Shown here: in pieces, positions 1,851 through 26,124 of the stretch
Numbering within the stretch: the stretch's first letter is position 1
How the letters are laid out: every line of letters begins with the position of its first letter
Virus record (IMG/VR): IMGVR_UViG_3300027974_000020
Span: 105,198-169,197 of that record
DNA length: 64,000 nt
Origin: a virus
Direction: 5' to 3' (one strand)
Notes under the pieces: model-generated
The model's database searches: none
What the model was told of the DNA's origin: nothing
The model's input: the letters and a program-made list of their open reading frames with translations, nothing else
Made by a program: the position numbers and the translations under genes

Positions 1851-2069
1851 TTAGAAGTCTGAGCTATATTCGTAGTTATCCATATCATAATTATCGTAAT
1901 TTACTCCAACTTGGGCTGAAGCGCCATAATAAGTCTTTACACTAAGAGCATCCTCAAATTCATCTTCAACCCACTGTAGACAGTCTGGACAACGTAGATT
2001 ATCATCATACATTCCCTCTGATACCACTATCTCTGATGAACAGTATGGGCAATCTATAAAGCTTGACAT
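1851..2069 (-). CDS. small acidic zinc-ribbon protein
   Basis: CPYC...CPDC pair; GGGAAG SD-like sequence upstream on the minus strand. Confidence 0.65.
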   Translation of the reverse strand: MSSFIDCPYCSSEIVVSEGMYDDNLRCPDCLQWVEDEFEDALSVKTYYGASAQVGVNYDNYDMDNYEYSSDF

Positions 2070-2473
2070 ATTCTTATCTTCCCTTCGCCTTATTAGGCAT
2101 TGTTGTTATGGATGTTTATTCTTCTTATTATATAACAGCTCAATCATAATACACATTTGTATAGATCAAAACAACTCCTGATCAAACTTTTTTTCTGCGG
2201 GCCAATTCTTATTCTCAACCTGTATAAACATATATAAAATTCCTATAAGCCTAAAAAATAGGTAAAAAATATAAGGGGGTAATAGTGAGTATATGTTGTG
2301 CTTCATAAGTTTTAACGAGGCCACCCCTGTATACCCCATCGCTCCTCTGTTTACAAGAGCTAACCGTTGACAATGAGGTTATAAAACACAATGTAAGTCT
2401 GACACTACATAGGCGAAGGTGATATGGATGCACCTACCAATACATCCCACTACATGTTCCTTAAGGAGGAGAC

Positions 2474-2767
2474 ATGTTTACATCAATCATTGAGTGGTTA
2501 GTATTCCTTACAGTAGTAGGCAGTATCGCAGCATCTGTAGGCCTGATGGTCTATGGTGTGTATGTGGTCGTGTCAGATATAAGTACTGTTAATGCAGTGC
2601 TGGTCTTGACAGGGCTATTTGGTACAGTGTTCTCACTGCTTGCGCCATTTATATTCAATGGTGTTATCCCAGCTAATAACTGGGGATTAATGGTTGGTTT
2701 TAGCTGCTGGTTGGTAGCTCTTCCTGCCTTTATAATACTGGGTGCTTGGGCTATAGAGCGCAAGTAA
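2474..2767 (+). CDS. hypothetical membrane protein (3 TM)
   Basis: TAAGGAGG SD; three hydrophobic stretches; followed by a terminator. Confidence 0.75.
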   Translation: MFTSIIEWLVFLTVVGSIAASVGLMVYGVYVVVSDISTVNAVLVLTGLFGTVFSLLAPFIFNGVIPANNWGLMVGFSCWLVALPAFIILGAWAIERK

Positions 2768-2781
2768 TCAGTTAATCAACT

Positions 2782-2852
2782 AAGAAGGCTCTTCCATGGT
2801 AGTGCATGGGAGAGCTTTCTTTTTTATGGCTAGGTATAAGACATCTAGCTAT
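2782..2852 (+). promoter_or_regulatory. terminator + CTAG element, copy 1
   Basis: GCTCTTCCATG/CATGGGAGAGC hairpin, T-tract, then ATGGCTAGGT-ATAAGAC-ATCTAGCTAT. Confidence 0.75.
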
Positions 2853-2905
2853 GTCTCATCAGATCGACATTAACTGTCTGTGACCCCAGCGTAGGTAGTG
2901 GCTGG
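2853..2905 (+). ncRNA. candidate pseudoknot leader RNA, copy A
   Basis: GTC..GAC stem; loop CAGAT pairs with downstream GTCTG; then TGACC and a hairpin. Homologous to copies at 7953, 8746 and 9460. Confidence 0.6.
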
Positions 2906-2967
2906 ACAACACACTGCTATGGAGACACGCGTGCCATATATAACAGCGTGTAATAAGGAGGTAGCTT

Positions 2968-3252
2968 ATCGCTGCTATAACACAAGGTAAGACAGTTACA
3001 TTCAAGCAAGTTGATGATATCATCAATTCTGCCGCTAAGGAATACCGGGTTTACCACTACAATGGTGGACAGGTCTTCATCCGTTTAAGCGCGTTGGATA
3101 ATATGATGATGGTTATCGACCATTCAACAGTAGACATTACAGTTGAGTTGTTTGACGGAACTGCATACTTGGCTGCATATGCCAATAACAACACTGAATA
3201 CAGCAACCGTTTTATTGCTGCGCCATCACAATTGGCTGTGTTGTTTGCTTAA
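2968..3252 (+). CDS. 94-aa hypothetical protein with putative ATC start (absent from ORF track)
   Basis: TAAGGAGG SD, 6 nt, then ATC. The frame (IAAITQGKTV...LAVLFA) is open to TAA at 3250-3252, just before the next terminator. Confidence 0.7.
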   Translation: MAAITQGKTVTFKQVDDIINSAAKEYRVYHYNGGQVFIRLSALDNMMMVIDHSTVDITVELFDGTAYLAAYANNNTEYSNRFIAAPSQLAVLFA

Positions 3253-3260
3253 GTAAGTAA

Positions 3261-3331
3261 TAAAGAAAGATACCCTGGGGTCTTCGGACCCTGGGGTTCT
3301 TTTTTTATGACTAGGACAAAGGTCTTATGTC
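3261..3331 (+). promoter_or_regulatory. terminator + CTAG element, copy 2
   Basis: cTTCGg-loop hairpin, T-tract, then GACTAGGAC-AAAG-GTCTTATGTC. Confidence 0.8.
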
Positions 3332-3356
3332 AATACTCTCTAGGAGGGGAGTAGAT

Positions 3357-3626
3357 ATGAATATGAAAGACAAACTAATAATGGCAATAATTGCAGTATT
3401 ATCAGTGCTTGCAATTGTTAGCTTTGTAGATGCAAGTAACAACCCAGTATCCTGCCAAGTTGACAGTTTGGTAGCGACATATGGAGATACCTATTGGACA
3501 TTGAGCAGTGATGCTGGTTGTGTTGGTGGGTATGATAAGCAAAGTAGGGTTGGGCAGATAATTGATCTTAATGGAGGTTCTGCGGATCTCCGTCATGGTC
3601 AATTGGTAATATTCCCAACTAAGTAA
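3357..3626 (+). CDS. membrane-anchored LysM-domain protein (YneA/ChiZ-like architecture)
   Basis: N-terminal TM or signal peptide, then a GDTYWTLS...IIDLN...LRHGQLVIFP LysM pattern; AGGAGGGG SD. Confidence 0.75.
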   Translation: MNMKDKLIMAIIAVLSVLAIVSFVDASNNPVSCQVDSLVATYGDTYWTLSSDAGCVGGYDKQSRVGQIIDLNGGSADLRHGQLVIFPTK

Positions 3627-3644
3627 ATTAAGTAAGTAAACCCA

Positions 3645-3718
3645 AAAAGAATTCCCCGAGCTGGTACCCTCTGCCAGCTTGGGGTTTTCTTTTTATGACT
3701 AGAGCTCAGGCTTTAGTC
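3645..3718 (+). promoter_or_regulatory. terminator + CTAG element, copy 3
   Basis: CCCCGAGCTGG/CCAGCTTGGGG hairpin, T-tract, then GACTAGAGC-TCAG-GCTTTAGTC. Confidence 0.8.
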
Positions 3719-3830
3719 GGGCTATAAGCGTTACGCCCTGAAAGTAATGCACCGGTCGTTGGCTACCGTAAAGCTAACACCTGTTGCGCAATTTGGGACT
3801 TTCTCTCCCAAAAAAACAGGAGGAATACTA

Positions 3831-4154
3831 ATGATTACAATGATCATTATCGCAACACTCATGGTTGTGGCTGCAGTTGCAGTTACAGTCTGCGTGATGC
3901 AGCAAAAGGCAATCGTTCTGATCAATCAGATCAAGAACCTCATCGTTCAATTGAGCGAAGAGAAAGCAAAAGCAGCCAAGGTTCTTTCCGAAAAGGAACA
4001 AGAACTGAGGGAAGCCAAGGATACAGCACGCCGTCATTTAAATGATTGGAATGCTCTCTACTTGGAGAAAAGGGCAGCTGAAGCCAAAAAGGCAGAAGCA
4101 GCAAAGAAGACAGAAGCGAAAGCTACTGTAAAGAAGACCAAAACAACCAAATAA
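3831..4154 (+). CDS. membrane-anchored coiled-coil protein with Lys/Ala-rich tail
   Basis: AGGAGG SD before ATG 3831; N-terminal TM followed by a charged helical region. Confidence 0.75.
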   Translation: MITMIIIATLMVVAAVAVTVCVMQQKAIVLINQIKNLIVQLSEEKAKAAKVLSEKEQELREAKDTARRHLNDWNALYLEKRAAEAKKAEAAKKTEAKATVKKTKTTK

Positions 4155-4188
4155 GACAAATTAGGGAAAGTCCTAATTGCGCAACAAC

Positions 4189-4250
4189 AAAAGATGCCCT
4201 GGGGGTTAACACCCCTGGGGTTTTCTTTTTATACCTAGAACATAGGTCCT
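4189..4250 (+). promoter_or_regulatory. terminator + CTAG element, copy 4
   Basis: Hairpin, T-tract, then ATACCTAG-AACATA-GG. Confidence 0.7.
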
Positions 4251-4279
4251 TATAATAAGTGAAGGGAGGTGAAATAGAA

Positions 4280-4453
4280 ATGGAAAACGCTAGGAATGGC
4301 ATATTCCCACATAAGTGTGGATGGCCATCCTGTGAGTTTGTAGTGGAATTGGACGATGAGCCCAATTGCTTTACTCATTCACCAGACAGCGGCAGTTCCG
4401 AGGTCGGCTACTCTGCAAGGAGAGATGCTGAACGCGGAATCGTACGGTTCTGA
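4280..4453 (+). CDS. small Cys/His (putative zinc-binding) protein
   Basis: GGAGGT SD before ATG 4280; C-x4-C...C-x2-H. Confidence 0.65.
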   Translation: MENARNGIFPHKCGWPSCEFVVELDDEPNCFTHSPDSGSSEVGYSARRDAERGIVRF

Positions 4454-4520
4454 TGGGATGGCAGCCAACTGACTAAGAGTCGGGGCAGATGAATAGTGCC
4501 TGGCAACAGAAACTATCATG

Positions 4521-4588
4521 AAAGAATAATCTCAGGGGTTAGCATCCCTGAGATTTTCTTTTTATGACTAGGGAAAAGGTCTCTAGTC
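4521..4588 (+). promoter_or_regulatory. terminator + CTAG element, copy 5
   Basis: AATCTCAGGG/CCCTGAGATT hairpin, T-tract, then GACTAGGGA-AAAGG-TCTCTAGTC. Confidence 0.8.
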
Positions 4589-4682
4589 TGGTTAGCAGAC
4601 CATAATCTGTTTAGCCGTAGCTGTACATACGGTGCCAGCGTGATGGGCGCATCCCATCTTTATGATTTCTTAAGGAGGAATC

Positions 4683-4973
4683 ATGTTCGGCATCATATTG
4701 CTACAAAACTGGTTGACTTTTGCGATATTCGCAATTTTGATATCAGTCTCGGTAATGATCATTATCGAGGAAACAAAAGGTAAAGGTATCATTAACACTA
4801 TCCTATACACTTTAGGATTTGTGTCACTGTTGTCTTTATGGCCTGTATTTAATATCTATACAGCCATACCTATCACAAACGATAATAATTTATTATTTAT
4901 AATAGCTTTATTTACAACATATTTTGCTCTGGTATTTGCTGGAACAGAGTTGATGGATAAAGCTACAAAATAA
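4683..4973 (+). CDS. hypothetical membrane protein (3 TM)
   Basis: TAAGGAGG SD; hydrophobic segments. Confidence 0.75.
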   Translation: MFGIILLQNWLTFAIFAILISVSVMIIIEETKGKGIINTILYTLGFVSLLSLWPVFNIYTAIPITNDNNLLFIIALFTTYFALVFAGTELMDKATK

Positions 4974-5025
4974 TAAAAAACTAGAATACTTTAGTTGTAC
5001 AGAGCTAAAGTTTTCTTACCAAACT

Positions 5026-5090
5026 AAGAAGTCCTTGGGGTTAGCATCCCAGGGATTTCTTTTTTATGCCTAGTGGATAGGTCACTAGGT
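5026..5090 (+). promoter_or_regulatory. terminator + CTAG element, copy 6
   Basis: Hairpin with GTTAGCA loop (as in copy 5), T-tract, then CCTAGTGG-ATAGG-TCACTAGG. Confidence 0.8.
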
Positions 5091-5139
5091 AGGCAATCTT
5101 ATTATGCCTACAAATAATAAGAGGAAGGGGAGCCTCATC

Positions 5140-5325
5140 GTGTCTGACACCTTGAAGCGCTTTCCTACCCTGACCTTACAATGCGCAGACACAATCTGCT
5201 TCATTTGTAAGACAGAAACCAAAGTCAATGGGGATACCAACCCCTATGACCTTGGTTTTGCCAGGGTAGGTGGCAACTCCGCCAACGGGTACGAGATCTA
5301 TCACATCTCGTGCTGCAACGGCTGA
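5140..5325 (+). CDS. small putative zinc-binding protein
   Basis: AAGGGGAG SD before GTG 5140; CFIC...HISC. Confidence 0.6.
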   Translation: MSDTLKRFPTLTLQCADTICFICKTETKVNGDTNPYDLGFARVGGNSANGYEIYHISCCNG

Positions 5326-5385
5326 GTTAGCCTAATACTGGCCACCTGTGCCTGTCTCATAACTGGGGGACATTAAACTACTCAG

Positions 5386-5455
5386 TGAGAGGGTAGCCCA
5401 AAGCATTAGCTAGGGCTACCCTCTTTTTATATGACTAGGAGAAAGGCTTCTGGTT
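5386..5455 (+). promoter_or_regulatory. terminator + CTAG element, copy 7
   Basis: GAGAGGGTAGCCC/GGGCTACCCTCT hairpin, T-tract, then GACTAGGAG-AAAGG-CTTCTGGTT. Confidence 0.8.
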
Positions 5456-5483
5456 AAACCAAACATACAACAAAGGAGAAACC

Positions 5484-5753
5484 ATGCGTACATCACCACG
5501 CTGTGTTGGTATAGTAAAACCAACAAGTAGGCGAGTGTTAAAGAAGGGGTTGGAGAGGTATCCTCAGATAAAGGGGGATGTAACTCAACAACGGTGCTTA
5601 AAAAGTATCAACTGCCCACACCACAGGGTTGCTAATGCTAGAATTATGGAGCTTCCATTAGAAGAACCATATGTAGAGCTAACAAGAGAGCAAATAAGGC
5701 AATTGATTAACATCGGTTACATGGCTGAAACAGGCCGTCCATACTACTTATAG
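5484..5753 (+). CDS. hypothetical basic protein
   Basis: AAGGAG SD; 89-aa ORF. Confidence 0.65.
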   Translation: MRTSPRCVGIVKPTSRRVLKKGLERYPQIKGDVTQQRCLKSINCPHHRVANARIMELPLEEPYVELTREQIRQLINIGYMAETGRPYYL

Positions 5754-5777
5754 ACCATAGGTCAAAGGAGAATAACA

Positions 5778-6905
5778 ATGAAATCATTAAAGCGTTTATT
5801 AATAATCTCTACTGTTGCAATTTCTTTTATTGGGGTCAATGAAAGTTCTGCTTCAGCTAGAAATAACAAATGTGTAAAAGTTGGCACATTTAAAACGGCA
5901 GTAAAAGTTAAGTACGAATGCAAGAGATTGACCACAGGTCTCAGATGGGTAAAGGTACAAACAAAAGTTGTACCAACAACACCTGCTGAAGTTATAATAC
6001 CAATACCAACTGATTGGTCAAATATTGAAAAGTATGCACAAAACATACCATACGCAGCATGGAAGGCAAGTGTTGGCGCGATCACCACTGGTATGCCTCA
6101 GATGCCAACAGTGAATATCATTAATGGACCAAATGCCCTTATAGCTTATTCAACTCCGGAAGTTAAGATTAATTTAACATCACGTTTATTTTCATCTGCA
6201 AAGCAACTTTCGCAGGTAAATATTATGCGTTTTGGGTATGATGATATTGGATGGGCTAATTCAAAGTGGTTAGAGCAATTTAATGGCCAAGATAATTCTG
6301 TTCCAAGAGAAATATTCGATACGTGTAAAACTACCACGACATGTTGGGGTGGCATTTCGCGCAATACCAAAAGTGGAATAGCTTGGTTTGCTTTGGCAAC
6401 AATGAAAGATAATCTATCTGAACCTAAACTTGTAAACGGGACTAACTACGCGCACTCATATGCTCATGCAATCCAATACGCAGCACTGTCTGAAATACCA
6501 GCACAAAGACTGCCAAGATGGTTGCTTGAAGGAGTTGCTACTTATTCACAAGCTGCTGTTGAAGGCATGGTAAGTTTTGATTTATACAAGTCTGAACGCA
6601 CAAGAGAAACAGGAGGATTAAATAACTCTCTTGAATGGCTTGAATCATTTCTTGCCCCAACAGGCAATGATTGGTCTCATTGGAACAAATATACTGGTAA
6701 TGATTCTTGGAGAGTTTATGATGTTGGTTTTATGGCAACCGAAGCGTTAGTAGCCCTCAGAGGACCAAACACTGTAATGAGTTTGTATACAAAAGTAGGA
6801 AGTGGTCAAACTTTTGATCAAGCGTTTAATGAGCTATATGGAATCTCTTGGGCTGAAGCTCACAAGATAATTGCTCGTGTAATTTCCTTACAAATTAACA
6901 AATAA
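5778..6905 (+). CDS. secreted gluzincin-like protein, catalytic Glu apparently lost
   Basis: Signal peptide; HSYAH in place of HExxH, followed by PRWLLEGVA and a YDVG motif. Confidence 0.6.
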   Translation: MKSLKRLLIISTVAISFIGVNESSASARNNKCVKVGTFKTAVKVKYECKRLTTGLRWVKVQTKVVPTTPAEVIIPIPTDWSNIEKYAQNIPYAAWKASVGAITTGMPQMPTVNIINGPNALIAYSTPEVKINLTSRLFSSAKQLSQVNIMRFGYDDIGWANSKWLEQFNGQDNSVPREIFDTCKTTTTCWGGISRNTKSGIAWFALATMKDNLSEPKLVNGTNYAHSYAHAIQYAALSEIPAQRLPRWLLEGVATYSQAAVEGMVSFDLYKSERTRETGGLNNSLEWLESFLAPTGNDWSHWNKYTGNDSWRVYDVGFMATEALVALRGPNTVMSLYTKVGSGQTFDQAFNELYGISWAEAHKIIARVISLQINK

Positions 6906-6912
6906 TCTTATT

Positions 6913-6973
6913 AAAGAATAGAGGGTCCTTCGGGGCCCTTTTTTCTTTATGACTAGTGGATAGGCCACTAGTC
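6913..6973 (+). promoter_or_regulatory. terminator + CTAG element, copy 8
   Basis: GGGTCC-TTCG-GGGCCC hairpin, T-tract, then a perfect 9-bp stem GACTAGTGG-ATAGG-CCACTAGTC. Confidence 0.85.
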
Positions 6974-6993
6974 TTTAGTTAAGGAGAAGAGTA

Positions 6994-7320
6994 ATGAAAG
7001 AAATGGAATGGTGTGGATGCATGGATGTGCGTTCATGGAAAGATGGCTTTGCTGATATTTTTAGCAGAGAGTTAGTAGAAGGTAAAAGAAAAGGTGAGTT
7101 GTATGAATTGTTTGAAGTTAAAAGCTTTGAAGAATTTAAGGATGAGTTAAGTGATATTGCATGGGGTGTAGGACGTATTGTTGGTGGTTTGGTTGGTAAG
7201 CCATATGTACGGATTATTGGTGATGCAATACATTACAATAAGGTTGTTTCTCGTATGAATGAATATGGTTGTATGAGGAGCAAGCGATTTCTTATTAAGG
7301 GTGAATGTCCTAATAAGTGA
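6994..7320 (+). CDS. hypothetical protein
   Basis: TAAGGAG SD. EELSD-like DELSDI motif is reminiscent of MazG-like helical proteins (weak). Confidence 0.65.
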   Translation: MKEMEWCGCMDVRSWKDGFADIFSRELVEGKRKGELYELFEVKSFEEFKDELSDIAWGVGRIVGGLVGKPYVRIIGDAIHYNKVVSRMNEYGCMRSKRFLIKGECPNK

Positions 7321-7350
7321 TTTAAGTTAATTAGTAAATAATTGACGGGG

Positions 7351-7413
7351 TATGCCCCTAGGGTCGTTTGATCCTAGGGGTATATTTTTTATGCCTAGTG
7401 GAATGGCCGCAGG
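7351..7413 (+). promoter_or_regulatory. terminator + CTAG element, copy 9
   Basis: CCCCTAGGGTC/GATCCTAGGGG hairpin, T-tract, then GCCTAG-TGGAAT-GG. Confidence 0.75.
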
Positions 7414-7436
7414 TTATAGATTATAGGAGAAGAGAA

Positions 7437-7868
7437 ATGAAAGAGAAAGCAATTATAGTTGATATTGATGGTACTTTGTTTGAAGAGGTGCCAGGTTGGA
7501 CAATGGAGACTGATGCATGGTGGGTGGAAGAAACACTTAAGATGCGTGAGTTGAAAGTTGGAATTGGATTAATTAAAGTATTTAAGGAAATGGGATTTAA
7601 GTTGGTTTTCTTGACAGCAAGAGGACAAAGCTGCAAGAAGAATACTTTGATTAAGTTTAAGGAAGCTGGTATTGATAACTTGGTAGATTCGATGTGGCAC
7701 AGGCCAGTTAAGTGGAATGGCGTGGCACCAGTTGAATATAAGAAGTTCATGATGCAACGGATTATGAAAAAGTATGATGTTGTGTTTGCTATGGATGATA
7801 GCGACAAGAACTTGGAAATGTTTAAGGGATTGGGTATCAAGGTATTTGATGCAAAGAGGTGGTGGTGA
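7437..7868 (+). CDS. HAD-family phosphatase (PNK 3'-phosphatase-like)
   Basis: DIDGT motif I, LTAR motif II, K, and MDDS motif IV; AGGAG SD. Confidence 0.8.
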   Translation: MKEKAIIVDIDGTLFEEVPGWTMETDAWWVEETLKMRELKVGIGLIKVFKEMGFKLVFLTARGQSCKKNTLIKFKEAGIDNLVDSMWHRPVKWNGVAPVEYKKFMMQRIMKKYDVVFAMDDSDKNLEMFKGLGIKVFDAKRWW

Positions 7869-7890
7869 GGTTATTGATAAACCTCAGACC

Positions 7891-7951
7891 AAAGAAACTA
7901 GGGTCCTTCGAGGCCCTTTTTTCTTTATGACTAGGACACAAGTCTTAAGTC
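7891..7951 (+). promoter_or_regulatory. terminator + CTAG element, copy 10
   Basis: GGGTCCTTCGAGGCCC hairpin, T-tract, then GACTAGGAC-ACAA-GTCTTAAGTC. Confidence 0.8.
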
Positions 7952-7952
7952 T

Positions 7953-8001
7953 GTCTATTGGTAGACATAAACTTCATGACCCCACTATTGGTAGTAGGTG
8001 G
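7953..8001 (+). ncRNA. candidate pseudoknot leader RNA, copy B (shorter)
   Basis: GTCTA-TTGG-TAGAC, ATAAAC, TTCATGACCCC, then a hairpin. Confidence 0.5.
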
Positions 8002-8054
8002 CAAATCATACTACCAGGGCACAGCCTTCACTGTGACTAATAAAGGAGAATAAA

Positions 8055-8735
8055 TTGGAAATGAACGAAGAGCCCAAAGCAATGCCAAAGTGGTTGGGTA
8101 AATTCCCAGCCTACATCAAACAATTGTGGTTGGATTCAAACAAAATTGAACCCACACCACCAGTGGAACCATCACTGCCAGCAGAAGGCGAATTTCGTTT
8201 TCTGTTGATTCCACAAAATGACACAAGCAACTCCGAGGCGGTACCGATGTTGGTGCTCATCCAGAAAGTACTTCAAGATGGGTACTTCCAGGTAATGCTT
8301 ACTCATTGTGAAGATGCAATGCAAACATACTCTGATCTTTACGTCACTAGTGGCGAAACAGGTTTGGGGTATGGTGTTTTCATTAGCACCGCAATACAAA
8401 ATCAAGCTAACGTGAATTGCTTGAGCGAAACTGCAGTTGGTAAGTTGATTCCTTCAATGGTACGAGCTAGGGGTACATACAATTTTGGACCTAATGATGA
8501 GTGGCGCAGAGGACGTCGCTTTTCTTCAGATCGATTTGTTGCACAACTAGATCCACGTTGGAAGTTCGTTAATGAACAACTTACTGCAATGCAATACCTA
8601 CTGGGCGCATATGAAGATGAAGGCGATACTCGTGACTCTGAATTGAGCGCAAAACACCAAGCAGAAGACATGAAATCGTTTTACCAAGTTGACCGTGACA
8701 ATGGTGAACTTCTTCCATCGCAGAAAAACAACTAA
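8055..8735 (+). CDS. hypothetical protein
   Basis: AAGGAG SD; 226-aa ORF with a TTG start, or ATG at 8061. Confidence 0.7.
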   Translation: MEMNEEPKAMPKWLGKFPAYIKQLWLDSNKIEPTPPVEPSLPAEGEFRFLLIPQNDTSNSEAVPMLVLIQKVLQDGYFQVMLTHCEDAMQTYSDLYVTSGETGLGYGVFISTAIQNQANVNCLSETAVGKLIPSMVRARGTYNFGPNDEWRRGRRFSSDRFVAQLDPRWKFVNEQLTAMQYLLGAYEDEGDTRDSELSAKHQAEDMKSFYQVDRDNGELLPSQKNN

Positions 8736-8745
8736 GTAAGTAATA

Positions 8746-8800
8746 GGTCTGATTGGATCGACCTTAACTGTCCATGAACCAACCGTTAACCAAGAGGTTG
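8746..8800 (+). ncRNA. candidate pseudoknot leader RNA, copy C
   Basis: GGTC-TGATTGGATC-GACC, TTAACT, GTCCA (pairs with loop TGGAT), TGAACC, then a CAACC/GGTTG hairpin. Confidence 0.6.
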
Positions 8801-8843
8801 TAATTCACATGGTTATTTAATCACAAACAAAAGGAGAAGGATA

Positions 8844-9362
8844 ATGTCAGATAACAAAAACAAATTCCAGTCAAGGCTGGATGCAATCTCAAAGGTTGCA
8901 ATTGTTTTACATGCCTTTGGCACATGGTATGAACTACAAATTGAATCCAGTGACAAAAATCGGTTGACTGATGGGGCACTGAAGTATACACAGCATGTTA
9001 GCTTGTTCCCAAGCAGCAGAACATTGTATTCTTTTGTTGGTGTTTCAGAAGATGGTGCAATTGTCAATGGTTTCATGCATGATGGAACAAGCAACGACAA
9101 TGGTGGTTATGGCAGTGATTCGTTTGAATTGACGATGAAAGATGGATCACACAAAGTCATAACAGGACCATGGAGCTCAAGACCAGGAGTTCATACTGTT
9201 AACAGCGGTATTCAATACACTGAAGTTAGAGTTGGTTATGGTATGTATGGATTCTCAAGGGAATTCATTGAAGCCATAATTGATCGATTTAACCTCGATG
9301 TAAATCTTGACTCAGTAACTTTGGAAGACAAAGAAATTAATCTGAAAGTAACACCTAAGTAA
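8844..9362 (+). CDS. hypothetical phage protein
   Basis: AAGGAG SD; 172 aa with GYG...GPWSS motifs. Confidence 0.7.
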   Translation: MSDNKNKFQSRLDAISKVAIVLHAFGTWYELQIESSDKNRLTDGALKYTQHVSLFPSSRTLYSFVGVSEDGAIVNGFMHDGTSNDNGGYGSDSFELTMKDGSHKVITGPWSSRPGVHTVNSGIQYTEVRVGYGMYGFSREFIEAIIDRFNLDVNLDSVTLEDKEINLKVTPK

Positions 9363-9400
9363 GTAGCAGCGGTGAGCCTGGAGTTAGGTTTCAGGCTAAG

Positions 9401-9458
9401 GAAATTAGGGTCCTTCGGGGCCCTTTTTTCTTTATGACTAGGAATAAGGTTCCAAGTC
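9401..9458 (+). promoter_or_regulatory. terminator + CTAG element, copy 11
   Basis: GGGTCCTTCGGGGCCC hairpin, T-tract, then GACTAGGAA-TAAGG-TTCCAAGTC. Confidence 0.8.
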
Positions 9459-9459
9459 C

Positions 9460-9513
9460 GTCTGATTGGATCGACGTAAAATGTCCATGACCCCTGGTTA
9501 TTGGTTACCCAGG
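9460..9513 (+). ncRNA. candidate pseudoknot leader RNA, copy D
   Basis: GTC-TGATTGGATC-GAC, GTAAAAT, GTCCA, TGACCC, then a CCTGG/CCAGG hairpin. Confidence 0.6.
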
Positions 9514-9576
9514 ACAACTACGTAACCAGAGAGACACTATCTCTCTATAATAAAAAGTGTAATAAGGAGGAATGTT

Positions 9577-9966
9577 ATCAAAGAGCAAATCAACAAAATC
9601 AACCAGGTCACTGATGGTGACAAGGTCAAGTGCGAGCCGTGCTTTGGCACAGGTAAGTACATGAGCAAAACCGTCATCGATGGAACATGTTTCCGTTGCA
9701 AAGGCACTGGTTCAGAAAAAGCAATGTCAATCAAGCAATACAATTTCATCAAGGAATTGTTCATGGCATTGGTGAAAATGAACATCATTGTGAAAGAGAA
9801 CAATGAATGGCATGAAATGGTTAACACCATGAACCAACACAAGGATGGAATTACATTGCGGTCATCCAAGTGGGCATCAGACAAGATTGAGGAATACAAG
9901 GCTCGCAAGAACCGTGTCCTCAAACCTAAGAGGCCAGTGTATTCAGTTACCCACTGTGGAATTTGA
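9577..9966 (+). CDS. DnaJ-type CxxCxGxG zinc-finger protein with putative ATC start
   Basis: TAAGGAGG SD, 6 nt, then ATC in frame with ORF 9661. The extension supplies the first CEPCFGTG, which pairs with CFRCKGTG. Confidence 0.7.
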   Translation: MKEQINKINQVTDGDKVKCEPCFGTGKYMSKTVIDGTCFRCKGTGSEKAMSIKQYNFIKELFMALVKMNIIVKENNEWHEMVNTMNQHKDGITLRSSKWASDKIEEYKARKNRVLKPKRPVYSVTHCGI

Positions 9967-10070
9967 GCAGTGGGATGAACCACAGTGGGTAACTGAAGAA
10001 TGGAAAGCTGGAGAAGATGCAGAGGCTGACATATACTAGCACCGCCAGGTGTATAGGTAGTCATCAAGTC

Positions 10071-10131
10071 AAAGAAGAGGGGGTCCTTCGGGGCCCTCTT
10101 TTCTTTTATGCCTAGGACACAGGTCTCAGGC
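10071..10131 (+). promoter_or_regulatory. terminator + CTAG element, copy 12
   Basis: GGGTCCTTCGGGGCCC hairpin, T-tract, then GCCTAGGAC-ACAG-GTCTCAGGC. Confidence 0.8.
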
Positions 10132-10157
10132 TAACACTCTCTAGGAGGGGAGTAATC

Positions 10158-11609
10158 ATGAAGAATAAACCAACAACAAACAAGGAGGAAACGGTGTATA
10201 AAGACACTGTCTACGCAAAACTGAGAAGGGCACTTTACAATGTCATTCTCGAAGGTAAATTCATGCAAGAAACTCAATGGGACGAGAATGGACGATGCCA
10301 CATGGTTCAGACATTTGGTGACCGTGGAATTATTGCAACAATGCAACGAAAAGCAAATAACAAAGGATGGGTTGTATTCTTTACTTTGTGCATGTACAAG
10401 CACGAGCAAAATCACATTCCATTCATGCGTGATTTGAAAGTTAGATTGACTATCAATGAAACTCCATCTGGAGTAAGATTATTGTGGTTTGTTAATGGTA
10501 AGCCACAATGGATGGTAGAAAGTAGTCAAATGGCTTTCTCAAATAAATTCCATCATACTGGACATATAGTTCAAGAAGTTATTAATCAGATCAAGAGTAT
10601 ATATTCTCCTGAAGATTTTATACCGATCTTGAAGTACATGCAAAATCCAACATGCAAAGAGTATACTTTGTATGGCCTTAACCAAAGGTGGATGAAAAAG
10701 TTATCAGGTGGAACAAACCCTAGGCAAATCTTGAATAAAATCTATGGCAAAGATGGGCAGGATGGGTTGAGCAGAAATGCTTTTGGTTCAAATATTGGCA
10801 AAAAGAGTTTTGCTACATTTGCTATAGCAGCTGAGCTAGTGCGATATTTGAAATCATTTCCTACATCATTCTTTGATAAAATCATTCTTGATGACTTTGC
10901 AGTACAAGATATTGCATACTTGGGGATGATGTATCAAGATGTAACTTACATCCAATATTTCATTAAGTACTTTAATCACAGTAAAATCCAACAAGATTTT
11001 ATTAATGCGATTAATAACTTTGAAATGTATCCACATTCTGATTATGACATTTCAGATGCTACAGAACGTTTCTTTAGGATGAGCATTTGGCAGGAAGCAC
11101 GTGATACCGGCAGGATGTTCAAGGAAATAAAGAACAGAGCTGTTCGGAGAAACATCATTGCACTTAAAGGCACGGTTCAAGAAACCCATGACCTTGTCAC
11201 TATCGAGAATGCAAAGCTAGCTCGAGAAGATAAGCAAATCAAATACAGTGATAAGAGCCTTATCCTGGATGGTCAACAGATAACAGATAATATTATTTCT
11301 GTTCTTCCGAAGACAACGTTTGATTTAATATTATGGGGTTCACAACAGCACAACTGCATAGGTAGCTATGGAGATCGTGTTGCTCGTGGCACAGGTGCGA
11401 TTGTTGTTGGATTCAAAGATGTGACAACAGATACTTGGGTCGGCCATGCTGAACTCAATAACTATTTCAACAGCTTTGGAAGTTCTTGGACAATCATGCA
11501 GTTGAGGGGCAAATATAACTCAAACCTTGATGAGTCAGATGAAACTACTATTCGTTTGTTTCTGGACAACATACTCAATGCTTGGAATGAAGAGTTAGTA
11601 TTGCCATAA
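10158..11609 (+). CDS. PcfJ-domain protein
   Basis: C-terminal HD...LPKT..DL..WG..QHNCIGSY...QLRGKYN pattern typical of PcfJ-like domains. Confidence 0.75.
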   Translation: MKNKPTTNKEETVYKDTVYAKLRRALYNVILEGKFMQETQWDENGRCHMVQTFGDRGIIATMQRKANNKGWVVFFTLCMYKHEQNHIPFMRDLKVRLTINETPSGVRLLWFVNGKPQWMVESSQMAFSNKFHHTGHIVQEVINQIKSIYSPEDFIPILKYMQNPTCKEYTLYGLNQRWMKKLSGGTNPRQILNKIYGKDGQDGLSRNAFGSNIGKKSFATFAIAAELVRYLKSFPTSFFDKIILDDFAVQDIAYLGMMYQDVTYIQYFIKYFNHSKIQQDFINAINNFEMYPHSDYDISDATERFFRMSIWQEARDTGRMFKEIKNRAVRRNIIALKGTVQETHDLVTIENAKLAREDKQIKYSDKSLILDGQQITDNIISVLPKTTFDLILWGSQQHNCIGSYGDRVARGTGAIVVGFKDVTTDTWVGHAELNNYFNSFGSSWTIMQLRGKYNSNLDESDETTIRLFLDNILNAWNEELVLP

Positions 11610-11628
11610 AGTTTTACCTCAGGTAAAT

Positions 11629-11703
11629 AAGAGAGAAGGGTCCTTCGGGACTCTTTTCTTTTATGCCTAGTTCACAGGTCTCAGATCACTGAGGTCGCTA
11701 GGC
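11629..11703 (+). promoter_or_regulatory. terminator + CTAG element, copy 13 (upstream of RNA polymerase gene)
   Basis: cTTCGg hairpin, T-tract, then GCCTAG-TTCACA-GG. The partner CTAGGC is at 11698-11703, beyond an inserted hairpin. Confidence 0.8.
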
Positions 11704-11739
11704 AAGTAATACAAACCAATAAACCCTTAAGGAGGGAAT

Positions 11740-14331
11740 ATGGAAGACCAACCGGTCAAACCGCCCGATGCAGCGGCCAATGCATCAACAAAGGAGAAGA
11801 AGATGCCAAAAGGTATCATCACTTTCCTGAAGGGGCGCTTTCGCGTTCTGACAAATAATCCAACTCCGAAAGAGGAGCAGGCATACAATTTGTCTCAGGA
11901 AACCAATAAGCCAGTCCCGTTTGGACGGATCAAGACTGTTACTGGATACAATTATGTCCAGGACGTCTACGCTGTTCAGACTGGTGACTTCACCTACTCC
12001 TTGTTGGAGAACAAACTTACTAAGCGGGGAATTAAGTTCCGTTTAGGAGTCGTCTCTAACAAGGATCTATCAGAGCTCGTAATCAAACACGAACTGTTCA
12101 GTCTTAATGACATGATCAGTAAGTGCAGGTTCGCATGGGCTAACGCATCATACACCTTCTTCCTGGAGGTTCAAGACAGTAAAGAAGCATCAAGCTTTGA
12201 TCTGTCTGATCTTGGGTTGGAGGTCTATGACTTCAAGAAGACCAGCAAACGTTTGCAGGAAGTGACTCGTATCACTCAAATGCATTCGTCTGGTCCGATT
12301 GGCAAACTTGATTATCGCATGTTGGAAGATCTTCCTGGTGAAGAACTTGCATATGATGGTCCAGTATTTGTCAGCGACTCATTTGCAGTGCGTTCTTGCT
12401 TTAGTATGACTGATGGTCCTGCTAAGAACAAGCACATTGCAATGATCAATCGCGGTAAGATCGGTCCAATGATTGGTCGTATTCTGATGGATCAAGGTGA
12501 AGTTAAGGGCCTTGTCCACGTTGTTCCACGACAACAGCTAGGTGCGGATGTGGTTTTCCACAAATCTGCTCTGAAGCGAGAGTTAAAGACTGACGATGGA
12601 CGTTGGCACTATACTGCCTTCAAACACAAGAACCTCCACACTGCTATGTGGGATATGCAAACTATGTTCAATAACCATACCTGGTTAATGACCAAAGAGC
12701 AATTCACACTGGACATGGAGTCTGTTATCACTGACTTTAACAAGTCTGTTGAGAATGGACAGCTTCCTGACTGGATTATCCACCAGGAAACTGACGGGCA
12801 CAAGGATGACTCAGCTCCACAAGTAGAGCATGTGACATCTGGCTGGAAGAAGAGTTACATCCGCTGGCAACAAGCTGGTTTGGATGTAACTGCATCTAGC
12901 AACCTCGTCTACATGGCTTTCGGATCATTGCTGAACCAAATGCGTTCTGCTTTGAAACGAAACACGTGGTGGGTTCCCATCTCTAATGCCTTTACGGCGA
13001 CAGTAACCACCTTCGATGCTTTGGAGGTCATGGGTAACTTTGAGCTGCCTCAGCACAAACGAGACATGGTGTTCTTTGATGAACGCTTTGGCTGTATTGT
13101 GCCGACTAAGCGGTTCATTGAGACTGCTGACCTTCATGACACGTGGGATCAGGACGGTGACCAAGCTAAGTTCATCCGCATTAAACTGTGGAGTTCTTCG
13201 CTTGTTATGAGCCTTGATGGATACAACCATCCGGAACTCAGGGAAACATATGTCATTCCTGCTGATTTGGTAGTGCCAAGCACTCCTGAAGAGGCAATTG
13301 ATATGTGTGTCGTTATCCGTTCACCAAACGGTCCTGGCGGTTACTCTATCGAACGGTTTGATGCTGAAACGATGCCATGGCTTCGTGTAGCGGAAGATCG
13401 TGTACAGGTAATTGATCTGGCCAAAGCACCAGCTGCAATGAGCACTTTGCTCGTTACAACTGAATGCGGTCAGATTAATAGCTCCACTACCTACAGCAAG
13501 GAATTGTTCAACCGGGATCATGCTCTTAATATGATCTTGGCACAGATGAATAACCCTGGTGTTGGTAGGTACGCTAATCTCATTATGGTTTGGGCTGCAA
13601 CATTTGGTCCAAGCTATCCTGATAAGTTGCCTGCAATTGGTAACGATGTCATTGACTGTGTTCAACAGACCGCAGACCTTGGTTCATTTGTTCAATTGCA
13701 AAGTGACTACTCAGAAATGGCTGAAAGCATTGCTCAGGCGATCATTGACAGCGGTTGTGGTATTGACCGTTATGTTCTTGAGACCCGGTTCCCTGCACTC
13801 AGCGATGAGACACGCCAAATGCTGGTAGATATTGCAGTAGACGGTCAGTTTACTGAGATGTACAACGCATACAATCAAACTATTACAAAGGTGCAAAATA
13901 TCGCATCCAAGGGTAGCTTTGATCTGCGTTTGACATCTGACACTCGTAACAAAGTGTACAATGCAATTCCAGCTATGAGGGAGTCAACCTCTGTTTGGTG
14001 CCGTGGCATCTGGTCAAAGTATGAACGTGAACTCTCAAGGGTTGACGGTAAGTACTCTGAACTGTCCAAGAATACCAATCGCTTTGTAAAGATGTCTGCT
14101 GTTGCACAACGCACAGAAGAAATCTCTACCATCATTGGTGCACTGTTGGATGAAGTCAAGGCAACATCACATCCTGAGCTCTATGCTCTTGCTATCTACC
14201 GTTGGATCATTGATCCGGAACTGACTCGCAGTAAGTATGGCGTGTCTGACCGTATCATCTTCCAGAACGGAATAGACGGACAAGAGACCATCATGGATCT
14301 CATTATCACAGCAATCAAGGACCTGAAGTAA
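11740..14331 (+). CDS. single-subunit two-barrel RNA polymerase (YonO / RNAi-RdRP-like), paralog 1
   Basis: DGPVFVS, GRILMDQGEVKGLV..SALK (DPBB-A lysines), DQDGD (13147-13161), IRSP, GVGRYAN and IDC motifs. Confidence 0.8.
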   Translation: MEDQPVKPPDAAANASTKEKKMPKGIITFLKGRFRVLTNNPTPKEEQAYNLSQETNKPVPFGRIKTVTGYNYVQDVYAVQTGDFTYSLLENKLTKRGIKFRLGVVSNKDLSELVIKHELFSLNDMISKCRFAWANASYTFFLEVQDSKEASSFDLSDLGLEVYDFKKTSKRLQEVTRITQMHSSGPIGKLDYRMLEDLPGEELAYDGPVFVSDSFAVRSCFSMTDGPAKNKHIAMINRGKIGPMIGRILMDQGEVKGLVHVVPRQQLGADVVFHKSALKRELKTDDGRWHYTAFKHKNLHTAMWDMQTMFNNHTWLMTKEQFTLDMESVITDFNKSVENGQLPDWIIHQETDGHKDDSAPQVEHVTSGWKKSYIRWQQAGLDVTASSNLVYMAFGSLLNQMRSALKRNTWWVPISNAFTATVTTFDALEVMGNFELPQHKRDMVFFDERFGCIVPTKRFIETADLHDTWDQDGDQAKFIRIKLWSSSLVMSLDGYNHPELRETYVIPADLVVPSTPEEAIDMCVVIRSPNGPGGYSIERFDAETMPWLRVAEDRVQVIDLAKAPAAMSTLLVTTECGQINSSTTYSKELFNRDHALNMILAQMNNPGVGRYANLIMVWAATFGPSYPDKLPAIGNDVIDCVQQTADLGSFVQLQSDYSEMAESIAQAIIDSGCGIDRYVLETRFPALSDETRQMLVDIAVDGQFTEMYNAYNQTITKVQNIASKGSFDLRLTSDTRNKVYNAIPAMRESTSVWCRGIWSKYERELSRVDGKYSELSKNTNRFVKMSAVAQRTEEISTIIGALLDEVKATSHPELYALAIYRWIIDPELTRSKYGVSDRIIFQNGIDGQETIMDLIITAIKDLK

Positions 14332-14349
14332 TAGGTTCTTCCGAGTAAA

Positions 14350-14452
14350 GAGAGAGAGCCCCTGGGGAAACCTAGGGGTTCTTTCTTTATTCCTAGATCC
14401 TAGGTCTTTAGTTATTATATTAATATTTTTTTTTCCTAGATCTTAGGACCCT
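14350..14452 (+). promoter_or_regulatory. terminator followed by two variant CTAG-N6-GG elements (copies 14 and 15)
   Basis: GCCCCTGGG-GAAA-CCTAGGGGTT hairpin, then TTCCTAG-ATCCTA-GG and TTCCTAG-ATCTTA-GG. Confidence 0.65.
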
Positions 14453-14675
14453 ATTCTAAAGTCACTCGGCGATTGCTTAGCCCTCAGACTCAAAATAGGC
14501 TGAGATTCTAAATCCTCTTTGGCTCATTTCCCTTGACGGGCTTGGGCTAAAAGGGGGGATTTTCTCTCTTCTTTGCTCAATGTCCCTAACGGGTCTGGGC
14601 CAAAAGGGGGGGATTATTCCCTATTATAAAGGCATTCTTGGGAGCCTACAATTCCAAGAGAACAAGGAGACGATT

Positions 14676-15188: not shown

Positions 15189-15213
15189 GTTGACTGCTCA
15201 TTCCCCAAGGTGT

Positions 15214-15263
15214 GGAGTGTGGGACATTTGCTTCGGCGAGTGTCCTACACTCCCCCTTTTTTT
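15214..15263 (+). terminator. intrinsic terminator
   Basis: GGAGTGTGGGACA...cTTCGg...TGTCCTACACTCC, followed by a T-run. Confidence 0.75.
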
Positions 15264-15490
15264 ACTTAGTTCCTCGGCTACTCCTACGGAGTAGGCCTCA
15301 GAACTAATTCGCTGGCTGACGCCAGCTCAGACTCTTGCTATCCCCTCCTTGGATGTGCTAGCTCAGTAGTATAATAATATTGTATTACTGGGCTAGACAT
15401 TCTAAAAAAAAATTCAACTAGTACAATAGTCACCAAAACTCAACTACAAAAGGGGGGTTTTCTAAATATTCCTATCTTGAAAGGATTGTT

Positions 15491-17338: not shown

Positions 17339-17428
17339 ACCCAAAAGGGGGGATTGCGTATCTAGTGCAATCTCTTTATATAATATCACATAACAACATA
17401 TCCCATAATATCACAGAAAGATAATATC

Positions 17429-23562: not shown

Positions 23563-26124
23563 GTGTCACTAATCACATACAGACCAATTGTTCGGCTTCG
23601 CTCAGAAGCAAATGGGCCACTTCGCAGCATGAATGATTACCAGTTCGGATTTTACGATACTGGTTTTCTTCGTCAAGCTATGAAGTCTATCCCTAACGCA
23701 ACAAATTATCGAATGGCTACTATGCCCATTCCACAGAATCCACACGAAGCTCGGATTGCTGAACAGATTATTAAGCACCCCGATGTATGCTATGCCGTAG
23801 TTGATAAAAATAAGATTGCAATTGTTATCATAGAGAACAATCCAGGATGGTTGTCAATCTTTAAAGAAATGGGCTATGAAGTCTTTGCCGGCGATAAGAC
23901 TGGCAAACGACTCAAGACCTTTCATCGTCCAGCATTGTTGAACGCTCACTTTGAAAAAGATGAGATTAAAGTTCACGTTGCTGATTCAACAGACTATTGC
24001 TCATATGACTTTGAGAATGGAGAAGTTGCAAAACAATTTTGCGACCCATCCATTACTAAACGCCTTCTTGATGGCGGTTTTGTAATTTCTCGCAAGTTCG
24101 TTAAAAGAGCAATAGAAAATATTCCAATGTATCATCCAGAAGATACAACTGACAACAAAGAATATTATTATGATTGGCGTATTCGTAAGAAGCTTGTAAA
24201 GAATCTTATGAAAGCTCCAATCCTTAATGTTCGCATTGTCTTTGAAGGAGGCTTCCTCAAGGGCAATGCAATCGTTGTTGACGAAGAACAAATGCCAGAT
24301 GATATTGATATTATTACCAGTAGTGAAAATATTAAATCTGAAATAAAATATCACAATGGTTTTCAATTTCTGGCCGAACCTCAAGGTTCCCATGAACGAG
24401 TCATCACTGACGATCAAACTGTAATCAATTTGGATAATCTTTTCATCACATCCGATATGGATTTCTGGTTAACAGAAGAATATGAGAAGATGTTCAATGA
24501 TGCTATTAATTCTAAACTATTGACTAATTGGCAAGAAATTTACAAACGTCAGTTTCGTAATGTTGCATCAGCAGAAGATGAAGAAGCTAACTCTCGCATG
24601 TCCTATGTGGGATATCGTTGGGTGGCAAGCGGTATGAAAATTACCGATTCTCCATGGCTCTTTGAGACATTAGCAACAAGTCATGCAAAGCCATTTCAAA
24701 AGCGTATTCCAATTCCTTGCACAGTTTATGAGCAAGTAATTCCAGAATCTTTAGCTCGTGTGGCTGGCTATGACATTGATGTTGAGACAGAAACTATTCA
24801 GCGTATTAATGAACTTGGAGTTCATGTTGTCAATGATCTTGACTGGCTTGAGATGTATGAATCTCATGGCGGTCACGACGAGGACGACTACTTCAAATGC
24901 TTTTATCGCACAATGGTTGGTGGACAACAATTCGATGGCGAACGTGTCGTCATCATTTGTCGTTCTCCTAATGGCTATGGTGAGTATTCAATCTTTAGAT
25001 ATGTAGAAGGACAATGGTCTCCAACATGGCATAAAGCAGATGGTACTCCAATTCAGTTTCCTGAAGTTTCTGGACGTGGATGGCCAACTCGTTTGAGTGA
25101 AGCTATCTACCAGAATGAAGTTAAATATGACAAACTTCCATCTGAGTATCAAAATAAAGTAAAACCAAATGGTCATTATACTCCAGACGACGTTATCCAC
25201 GACATGCGTGTAGCTATGGGTGGTGGTAATGTCGGTGGATATGTAAACGCCGTTATGGCTCATTCCCTTGTTTTACACACTCATCGTCCAAACCAACTCT
25301 GCTCCATGGAGAAAGCAATCGACAAATGTATCAATCCAGATTATATCGAAGATGCTCTTGCTATCGATGCCGAAGCTAGAGCTATCGTTAGAGAAATCAT
25401 TGATTCTAAACAACCAATCGATTCTGAATTCTGGAGCCGCAGAGGCTTTTCACGTTATCTAAAAGATGGTGAAACAGTAGATCTTTTCGAAGGAAAGATG
25501 AGTCACATGAACACATTGTGTTCAGAAAAATATCGTGACTACTGTTCTCGAATTCGTGAATGGTCACAAGCAAATGCTGGCCCACCACAGATAGTTCATG
25601 ATCTTGGTAAGCGTTTGTATTTTCACGCACTGCCTATTGTAAGAAACTTTAGAAGTACTATTTATACAGTAAATACTTCTGAAGCTACTCAAGCAACAGG
25701 TACAATTGTTCGCAATTCTTGGGAAGAATTGTATTCTGATATTGTAAATATTGTTAATTCTTTTGATAGAGAAGAAGACAAGCATGATTTTATTATTGCT
25801 ATGTATTCTGTATCTTTAAAAGTACCAACTTCTAGTGGTAAAATAACAGATCAAATTGTTATGAATCGATTTGTATATCCTTATCTAGAAGCAGCTTTAC
25901 AATTTTATGGCATTGCAAATACCGTTGTATTTTCTCCTACCGAAGATGGAGACGTTGATATATTCAACGTTGAAAACAAAGAATGGAGATATCCTAATCC
26001 AAATGGAGATATTGTAGTTTACAATGATCCAATTGAATTTCAAAATGCTCATCGAATAGATAGCACAGTTGTTTTTACAACTCAAGAACCACCAGTCAGA
26101 CAATCTAATATATCCAAATATTAA
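23563..26124 (+). CDS. single-subunit two-barrel RNA polymerase-like protein, paralog 2
   Basis: DGGFVIS, VRIVFEGGFLKGN..SENIK, GGHDEDDYF (24868-24894), CRSPNG, NVGGYVN and AIDK motifs, colinear with paralog 1; AGGAGG SD with GTG start. Confidence 0.78.
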   Translation: MSLITYRPIVRLRSEANGPLRSMNDYQFGFYDTGFLRQAMKSIPNATNYRMATMPIPQNPHEARIAEQIIKHPDVCYAVVDKNKIAIVIIENNPGWLSIFKEMGYEVFAGDKTGKRLKTFHRPALLNAHFEKDEIKVHVADSTDYCSYDFENGEVAKQFCDPSITKRLLDGGFVISRKFVKRAIENIPMYHPEDTTDNKEYYYDWRIRKKLVKNLMKAPILNVRIVFEGGFLKGNAIVVDEEQMPDDIDIITSSENIKSEIKYHNGFQFLAEPQGSHERVITDDQTVINLDNLFITSDMDFWLTEEYEKMFNDAINSKLLTNWQEIYKRQFRNVASAEDEEANSRMSYVGYRWVASGMKITDSPWLFETLATSHAKPFQKRIPIPCTVYEQVIPESLARVAGYDIDVETETIQRINELGVHVVNDLDWLEMYESHGGHDEDDYFKCFYRTMVGGQQFDGERVVIICRSPNGYGEYSIFRYVEGQWSPTWHKADGTPIQFPEVSGRGWPTRLSEAIYQNEVKYDKLPSEYQNKVKPNGHYTPDDVIHDMRVAMGGGNVGGYVNAVMAHSLVLHTHRPNQLCSMEKAIDKCINPDYIEDALAIDAEARAIVREIIDSKQPIDSEFWSRRGFSRYLKDGETVDLFEGKMSHMNTLCSEKYRDYCSRIREWSQANAGPPQIVHDLGKRLYFHALPIVRNFRSTIYTVNTSEATQATGTIVRNSWEELYSDIVNIVNSFDREEDKHDFIIAMYSVSLKVPTSSGKITDQIVMNRFVYPYLEAALQFYGIANTVVFSPTEDGDVDIFNVENKEWRYPNPNGDIVVYNDPIEFQNAHRIDSTVVFTTQEPPVRQSNISKY

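Follow-up and report, generated by a model that had tools for sequence, protein, structure and literature searches.

A repeated terminator, TATG and hairpin unit in an early gene array of a lake phage: a candidate stop-and-restart signal

The DNA considered here is a 64,000-nucleotide window (bases 105198-169197) of a 169-kb IMG/VR contig, record IMGVR_UViG_3300027974_000020, that derives from an uncultured lake phage of ~200 kb and is ~80% complete. The contig is laid out as a 100-kb minus-strand arm with giant open reading frames (ORFs) and a plus-strand arm from ~102 kb. About 6 kb into the plus arm, behind a block of seven genes without terminators, begins an array of ~14 early gene cassettes organized by a short element in which a TATG core is followed by a CTAG-containing hairpin. 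A search of the whole contig returned 15 copies, all on the + strand between window positions 2825 and 14448, and no further copies outside that range. The array is thus a single 12-kb, one-strand block. Copies 1-13, the range covered by the original prediction, lie 43-135 nt upstream of a Shine-Dalgarno sequence and start codon and divide the block into 13 units of one or two genes each. The weak copies at 14388 and 14431 lie beyond that range, in tandem, ~240-285 nt upstream of the next called gene. The last unit of the array is an 863-aa gene (polymerase A) whose product, like that of its 853-aa paralogue B, we take to be a putative single-chain two-barrel RNA polymerase. The features are listed below in window coordinates, with the start of each TATG core.

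2782..2850, + strand: unit 1, terminator stem 2782-2821, T-tract and TAT to 2827 (TATG from 2825), hairpin 2828-2850 of 8 bp with a 7-nt loop
3263..3331, + strand: unit 2, terminator, T-tract, TATG 3306-3309, hairpin 3309-3331 of 9 bp with one bulge
3645..3718, + strand: unit 3, terminator, TATG 3694, hairpin 3697-3718 of 9 bp with a 4-nt loop, -13.4 kcal/mol
4189..4247, + strand: unit 4, terminator, variant TATA (4230), weak 5-bp hairpin 4233-4247
4228-4256, + strand: within unit 4, the sole unit with a good downstream sigma-70-like -10
4520..4588, + strand: unit 5, terminator, TATG 4563, hairpin 4566-4588 of 9 bp with a 5-nt loop
5026..5090, + strand: unit 6, terminator, TATG 5065, hairpin 5068-5090 of 9 bp with two G-T pairs
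5387..5455, + strand: unit 7, terminator, TATG 5430, hairpin 5433-5455 of 9 bp with three G-T pairs
6914..6973, + strand: unit 8, terminator with UUCG loop, TATG 6948, perfect 9-bp hairpin 6951-6973, -14.5 kcal/mol
7347..7414, + strand: unit 9, terminator, TATG 7390, hairpin 7393-7414 with one mismatch, z -1.3
7900..7951, + strand: unit 10, terminator, TATG 7926, hairpin 7929-7951 with one bulge
9407..9458, + strand: unit 11, terminator, TATG 9433, hairpin 9436-9458 with one A-A mismatch
10071..10131, + strand: unit 12, terminator, TATG 10107, hairpin 10110-10131 with one A-C mismatch
11636..11703, + strand: unit 13, terminator, TATG 11662, hairpin in two tiers at 11665-11703 (7 bp outside, with an inserted 8-bp hairpin); the polymerase A gene follows directly
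11740..14331, + strand: putative polymerase A, 863 aa, last cassette of the array
14350..14448, + strand: units 14 and 15, terminator followed by tandem degenerate copies, TATT 14388 and TTTT 14431, with 5-bp stems only
23563..26124, + strand: putative polymerase paralogue B, 853 aa, candidate alternative reader of the motif

A search of IMG/VR with the 863-aa protein retrieved 14 related loci (37-43% identity), bringing the total to 46 copies of the element, which is conserved across four phage lineages (the window phage and three related ones). The three related lineages carry it upstream of the same polymerase gene. There are 16 copies in relative G001 (complete at 209.7 kb) and 7 in G002 (216 kb), in both cases arranged as one-strand blocks just upstream of the orthologous polymerase gene. 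In G005 there are 7 copies of a variant, in which the GNCTAG of the 5' arm has become GGGTAG and the 3' arm is altered to match, while G003 and G004 have at most one copy. A scan of IMG/VR with the motif returned 88 stretches, nearly all of them single chance matches, and clusters were found only in the relatives already identified. In five G001 units there is no terminator helix (L023:7780-7822, 8095-8138, 8220-8263, 11880-11921 and 14040-14081); these carry, ahead of the T-tract and TATG, a conserved element in which ACTAGT lies within a 10-bp palindrome.

In 11-12 of the 15 window copies, RNAfold predicts a helix of 8-9 bp whose first base is the G of TATG, and z is <= -2.9 against dinucleotide shuffles in 11 of the 15. 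The helix begins at this G or one base further in for 37 of the 39 first copies and for most of the 7 copies from G005. The original prediction had described a hairpin that covaries and folds on the top strand, quoting five arm pairs that are all present, in copies 8 (6951-6973), 3 (3697-3718), 5 (4566-4588), 11 (9436-9458) and 7 (5433-5455). The loops of 4-5 nt ending in G or GG that it reported are indeed the usual form, with lengths of up to 7 nt. Copy 13 folds as it had proposed, the outer stem being kept across an inserted 8-bp hairpin. The same two-tier build recurs in several G001 copies with different bases in both tiers, including the copy at L023:15777, upstream of the orthologous polymerase gene.

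Is it the pairing or the sequence that is conserved? In a chimera test, the 5' half of each copy was joined to the 3' half of another, and none of 5000 re-pairings was as stable as the native set, either for the window copies (native sum -134 vs. -83 +/- 8 kcal/mol; z ~-6.5) or for 39 copies including those of relatives (-352 vs. -224 +/- 11 kcal/mol; 0/5000; z ~-11). In an untuned 27-row alignment, 85% of the cells are paired compared with 77% after shuffling (0/500), and sliding the partner lowers the paired fraction to 28-54%, which leaves a sharp peak at slide 0. RNAalifold finds a 9-bp helix with 4 compensatory pairs in an in-register set of 14 rows, and no structure in the mixed 27-row MAFFT alignment, where the 4-nt and 5-nt loop classes are out of register. 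The inner positions 7-9 pair with 15-17 using three to four Watson-Crick types each: position 7 appears as G-C, A-T, T-A, C-G and wobble, and positions 8 and 9 show three to four types. Position 2 appears as A-T, C-G and G-C. The copies share descent, so that shuffle tests overstate their independence, and the chimera test and the compensatory changes between lineages are the stronger evidence. Pairing, and not sequence, is conserved in the hairpin, on the coding strand. Window positions 2000-18000 gave no match in Rfam at the gathering score.

The two arms differ in information content, which is 1.4-2.0 bits in the 5' arm and 0.3-0.9 bits in the 3' arm. With the 5' arm fixed and the 3' arm drifting through G-T wobble, the 5' half appears to be read as sequence while the 3' half needs pairing only, and coding-sense RNA is the simplest site for such a combination. 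Unequal arms also bear on the possibility that the element is a double-stranded DNA (dsDNA) operator for a dimeric regulator recognizing CTAG half-sites. The CTAG cores are palindromic and the second palindrome with ACTAGT lies upstream of several G001 copies, both of which count for such a regulator. However, covariation of the inner three pairs is not needed by a protein half-site model, and the strong bias toward G-T over A-C counts against it. The dimeric operator was rejected on the arm asymmetry and is extremely improbable.

That bias amounts to 44 G-T against 3 A-C (1x1 mismatches) among the non-Watson-Crick positions, in agreement with the earlier remark that imperfect pairs are mostly G-T on the + strand. 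The + strand is the more stable one in 33 of 39 copies with RNA parameters (Wilcoxon p = 3e-6) and in 34 of 46 with DNA parameters. Mean stability is -9.0 kcal/mol for the + strand as RNA, and -3.8 and -3.2 kcal/mol for the + and - strands as DNA. These results support selection of the hairpin on the coding strand (the top, non-template one), where compensatory changes are real and imperfect pairs favor G-T, and the difference between -9 kcal/mol as RNA and -3.8 as DNA counts for a hairpin that acts at the RNA level. The original prediction had offered selection in the non-template strand or in read-through RNA. Of this, selection on the top strand stands, on the evidence of covariation and the G-T bias; a promoter of the N4 type is a weak reading, and RNA processing is the main rival to the explanation given below.

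In a DNA-level promoter, the non-template strand or an extruded cruciform would fold and so open or mark the promoter, an N4-like function performed for a two-barrel polymerase. In keeping with this, related enzymes favor single-stranded templates, crAss-like gp66 transcribing single-stranded DNA (ssDNA) and not dsDNA (bioRxiv 10.1101/2020.03.07.982082), and G13 and G14 of the element stay at a fixed distance from TATG whatever the pairing. The energetics argue the other way, as DNA hairpins average just -3.8 kcal/mol, the template-strand partner is weaker and the loops are not stable DNA mini-loops; moreover, the 44 G-T wobbles become A-C mismatches on the other strand, disfavoring a cruciform, and one relative copy (L018:2093) has the motif without the hairpin. 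The N4 virion polymerase itself, on which the original analogy was built, uses a template-strand hairpin with a 3-nt loop centered at -11, SSB melting the non-template hairpin (PMC4496689). N4 promoters P1-P3 resemble the present element in that conserved bases lie inside a stem whose variable positions need pairing only, and both are early-gene signals of phages with their own polymerases. The N4 hairpins, however, are three copies on the template strand, with 5-7 bp and a purine-centered 3-nt loop, read by a T7-like enzyme (PMC4496689), whereas here there are 15 copies on the coding strand, with 8-9 bp from the putative +1 and 4-7 nt loops. The analogy is accordingly not supported, and a DNA-level hairpin promoter is quite unlikely.

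The hairpin is embedded in a longer linear motif. In gapless register, the logo is T-rich from -12 to -4, with TAT at -3 to -1, G at +1, then N, C and TAG, followed by three free bases, W at 10, A at 12, G13, G14 and pyrimidines. Over the 46 copies TAT is kept in 45-46, the G in 42, the C in 39 and TAG in all 46. G13 and G14 are kept both in the loop (the 9-bp class) and in the stem (the G005 variant, and the class with 8 bp and a loop of 4 nt). A logo that is long, asymmetric and held in fixed register from -12 to +14 is typical of a polymerase signal. Apart from this motif, no conserved sequence lies between a terminator and the ribosome site that follows it. A sigma-70 promoter was rejected, as there is no -35/-10 pattern and sigma-70-like sites are not enriched (27 found vs. 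28.4 expected in shuffles), the only good -10 being that of unit 4. In the copy at L018:2093, the linear motif is kept while the hairpin is lost, and the ribosome site lies at +22 from the G. This excludes a start downstream of the hairpin at that locus, so that the RNA begins at or before the hairpin region, and indicates that the motif can stand without the stem, to which it assigns an auxiliary role.

A precedent for the TATG core is found in phage phiKZ, where the late promoters of the non-virion polymerase consist of TATG, start at its G (+1) and also rely on sequence further downstream (PMC4666361), which favors initiation at the G here as well. The two systems share the TATG core, the importance of sequence past +1 and, in phiKZ, a reader from the two-barrel superfamily of phage enzymes. 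The phiKZ enzyme is a split, multisubunit one, in contrast to the single chains of 863 and 853 aa, and neither conserved downstream sequence nor a hairpin was found at its promoters; the start at the present element is a putative one.

Directly upstream of 14 of the 15 copies is a GC-rich stem followed by a T-tract, that is, a terminator, and the array stretch contains 28 terminator-like sites where 8.9 are expected. At least five of the terminators have a UUCG tetraloop. By eye, and in a few units, the terminator stems (3263-3305, 10071-10106 and others) appear to be lengthened where the T-tract pairs with a purine tract upstream, and C interruptions of the T-tract seem to face upstream G's. 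Such pairing would leave TAT alone unpaired between the terminator helix and the hairpin. Several units have a further hairpin immediately adjoining the first, without a spacer (3719-3740, 4589-4603, 5091-5109, 7952-7967 and 9459-9477).

How are the genes behind so many terminators expressed? Genes behind thirteen strong terminators in series, that of the polymerase among them, would be starved of transcription unless it restarts. Alternatively, the polymerase may ignore the terminators and produce a long read-through RNA, in which a sequence-specific endonuclease would cut the 3-nt UAU linker between the two helices. The upstream mRNA would then keep a 3' hairpin and the downstream mRNA would receive the same 5' hairpin. 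The RNA-level fold and the strand bias fit this processing site equally well, several copies in relatives have no upstream terminator helix and would be read through, and only TAT separates the helices if the T-tract pairs with the purine tract. Against it, the terminators in series argue for restart and not read-through, the phiKZ precedent favors initiation, and no candidate nuclease was identified. Sites of RNase E or RNase III do not usually have a fixed, information-rich motif of ~18 positions, and an RNase III site was rejected, stems of 8-9 bp being too short for an enzyme that requires about two helical turns of double-stranded RNA. Cleavage is therefore unlikely, though it is the most serious competitor. 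A metagenome scan for transcript-derived contigs gave 0 matches to the unit-8 leader.

Each unit is best explained, with moderate confidence, as an intrinsic terminator joined to a promoter for a phage polymerase, the hairpin forming the 5'-terminal stem-loop of the cassette mRNA. In this composite stop-and-restart signal, a strong intrinsic terminator would be followed by a phage-specific promoter with the T-rich tract and TATG as its putative core, and then by a conserved start region whose RNA would fold into the 8-9 bp hairpin from the G of TATG. Transcription would start at this G or within a base or two of it, and each early cassette mRNA, that of polymerase A included, would bear a 5'-terminal stem-loop. 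The original prediction had overlooked this possibility of a start at the G with the hairpin as the mRNA 5' end, which we regard as the most likely one. The change in the G005 5' arm with its matching change in the 3' arm also counts for it. The stem-loop most likely would shield the mRNA from decay that depends on the 5' end. Stabilizing stem-loops at 5' ends are found in the E. coli ompA leader and in the phage T7 gene 10 leader, where the stem-loop runs from +1 of a class III promoter and the conserved +1 to +6 promoter bases make up the 5' arm. The present hairpins are similar in being short, in lying at the (presumed) mRNA start and in valuing pairing over sequence, but differ in that conservation extends to loop bases and G-U is frequent as the terminal pair, the protective function being a putative one.

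Several observations weigh against this explanation. Four window copies fold poorly (copies 4, 14 and 15 with a 5-bp stem only, copy 9 marginally), and in 14 of 33 helices the closing pair is a terminal G-U, a weak end for a stem that is to protect the 5' end. A role as pure stabilizer leaves the conservation of G13 and G14 unexplained, and the T-tract is accounted for by the terminator as well. Finally, no third or virion polymerase that might read a promoter of the earliest class was detected in the giant ORFs of this 80% complete contig. A profile of the polymerase compared with the 3503-aa and 2206-aa ORFs gave an hhalign probability of ~0.1%, and the T7-like polymerase family PF00940 had no match in the contig, the control genomes being equally silent.

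Which enzyme would read the motif? The polymerase A profile matches paralogue B at E 5e-20, while A itself has no Pfam or PHROG match and no tblastn match among GenBank phages. Among the relatives B is conserved at 60-69% and A at 37-43%. G003 has both A and B and yet no array of the TATG/CTAG motif, so that motif presence does not track B. A different repeated motif, GGAATAAGTCGG, is present downstream of A in that phage. It is conceivable, if quite doubtful, that the hairpin is part of promoter recognition, a single-chain two-barrel polymerase reading TATG together with a hairpin that is fused to it and folds in the coding strand or in nascent RNA. Under the preferred explanation of a 5'-terminal stem-loop, the hairpin might have a second use in separating nascent RNA from the template for a minimal polymerase that has no lid element, which is offered as speculation. 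YonO lacks lid-type elements, and its promoter is undetermined (PMC5467207); for crAss-like gp66, no promoter motif was found (bioRxiv 10.1101/2020.03.07.982082).

The closest parallel in gene organization is Thermus phage P23-45, which has a pair of two-barrel polymerases and two classes of promoter motif, the gene of the second polymerase being driven by the first class (PMC10770324). Both phages have two distant single-chain polymerases (the fold being putative here), a conserved motif before the earliest genes including a polymerase gene (unit 13 before A here), and a second class of motif downstream. They differ in that no virion-fused polymerase was found in the present contig, and in that the text of the P23-45 paper mentions no promoter hairpin (PMC10770324). 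The second motif, AAAAGGGGGG, occurs on the + strand in six copies right after the array (14549, 14602, 15448, 16192, 17020 and 17343), downstream of polymerase A, with gene starts following at distances of 9-33 nt or more. It may represent a second promoter class or an unusual ribosome site, and in relatives L021 and L018 it was not seen at the corresponding position. Family searches with the giant ORFs gave no informative match. The 3503-aa ORF (G000:C1:21350-31864, minus strand, outside the window) has no Pfam match and matches a PHROG of 1954 positions labeled endolysin; it is probably a giant virion or ejection protein, and three further ORFs of 1510-2206 aa lie near it.

The units also coincide with differences between phages. 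The cassette at 6994-7868 shares 86-94% protein identity with its G002 counterpart, as against 37% for polymerase A, and window 6900-7868 is ~95% identical in DNA to L018:2685-3550 of G002, unit 8 and its gene included. This pair points to a recent exchange of the cassette, as judged by sequence comparison. In hairpin 8 of G002, pair 3 is broken by a G-to-A change. Unit 9 is absent between the orthologous genes of G002, a clean indel of ~95 bp. The evidence that units mark indels and swaps comes from this one phage pair only. Could the element then be a recombination signal, its strand-specific hairpin serving as an attC-like ssDNA site, or the element simply providing shared homology by which cassettes move between phages? 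The cassette with 86-94% identity beside polymerases at 37% and the indel of a whole terminator-motif unit would both agree with such a role, and the PeSL elements of T4-type phages move cassettes in this way by homology (PMC4122927). Swapping by homology, however, needs no hairpin and leaves the covariation unexplained, the element of 20-23 nt is far shorter than attC, and no integrase was seen among the large ORFs scanned, a scan that leaves aside the small ORFs of the array. Recombination as the purpose of the element is very improbable; cassette exchange is probably a side effect.

PeSLs (promoter-early stem-loops) are composite terminator/promoter motifs of T4-type phages (PMC2839356; PMC4122927). 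They resemble the present units in that a stem-loop terminator lies directly before the restart signal, that the bracketed genes are small, have no known function and lie in an early region that is plastic, and that related phages gain, lose and exchange units and cassettes. In contrast, the PeSL promoter is a host sigma-70 early promoter, whereas the units described here combine a T-tract, TATG and CTAG with a covarying hairpin of their own.

Some cassettes have further features. The long leaders of the array have an additional conserved segment in common. Two cassettes with long structured leaders (2954-2970 and 9563-9579) contain a perfect TAAGGAGG followed after 6 nt by ATC; there is no in-frame ATG, GTG or TTG nearby, and the frames are open from the ATC for 94 and 129 codons, respectively, which suggests the use of ATC start codons. 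The cassette protein encoded at 10158-11609 (483 aa) has a PcfJ-like domain (E 2e-11).

The promoters of compact, single-chain two-barrel phage polymerases are barely known, P23-45 being the only case with defined motifs. The candidate signal of 30 nt is sharply defined, comes in 46 natural variants that include compensatory mutants, and has two candidate enzymes, which makes promoter specificity, start-site choice and the role of a hairpin at +1 directly testable in vitro. If the hairpin is part of promoter recognition, a structured promoter would have evolved independently of that of N4, with a different polymerase fold and on the opposite strand. The units would also provide a second, non-sigma-70 example of terminator/promoter elements acting as seams for the exchange of cassettes between phages.

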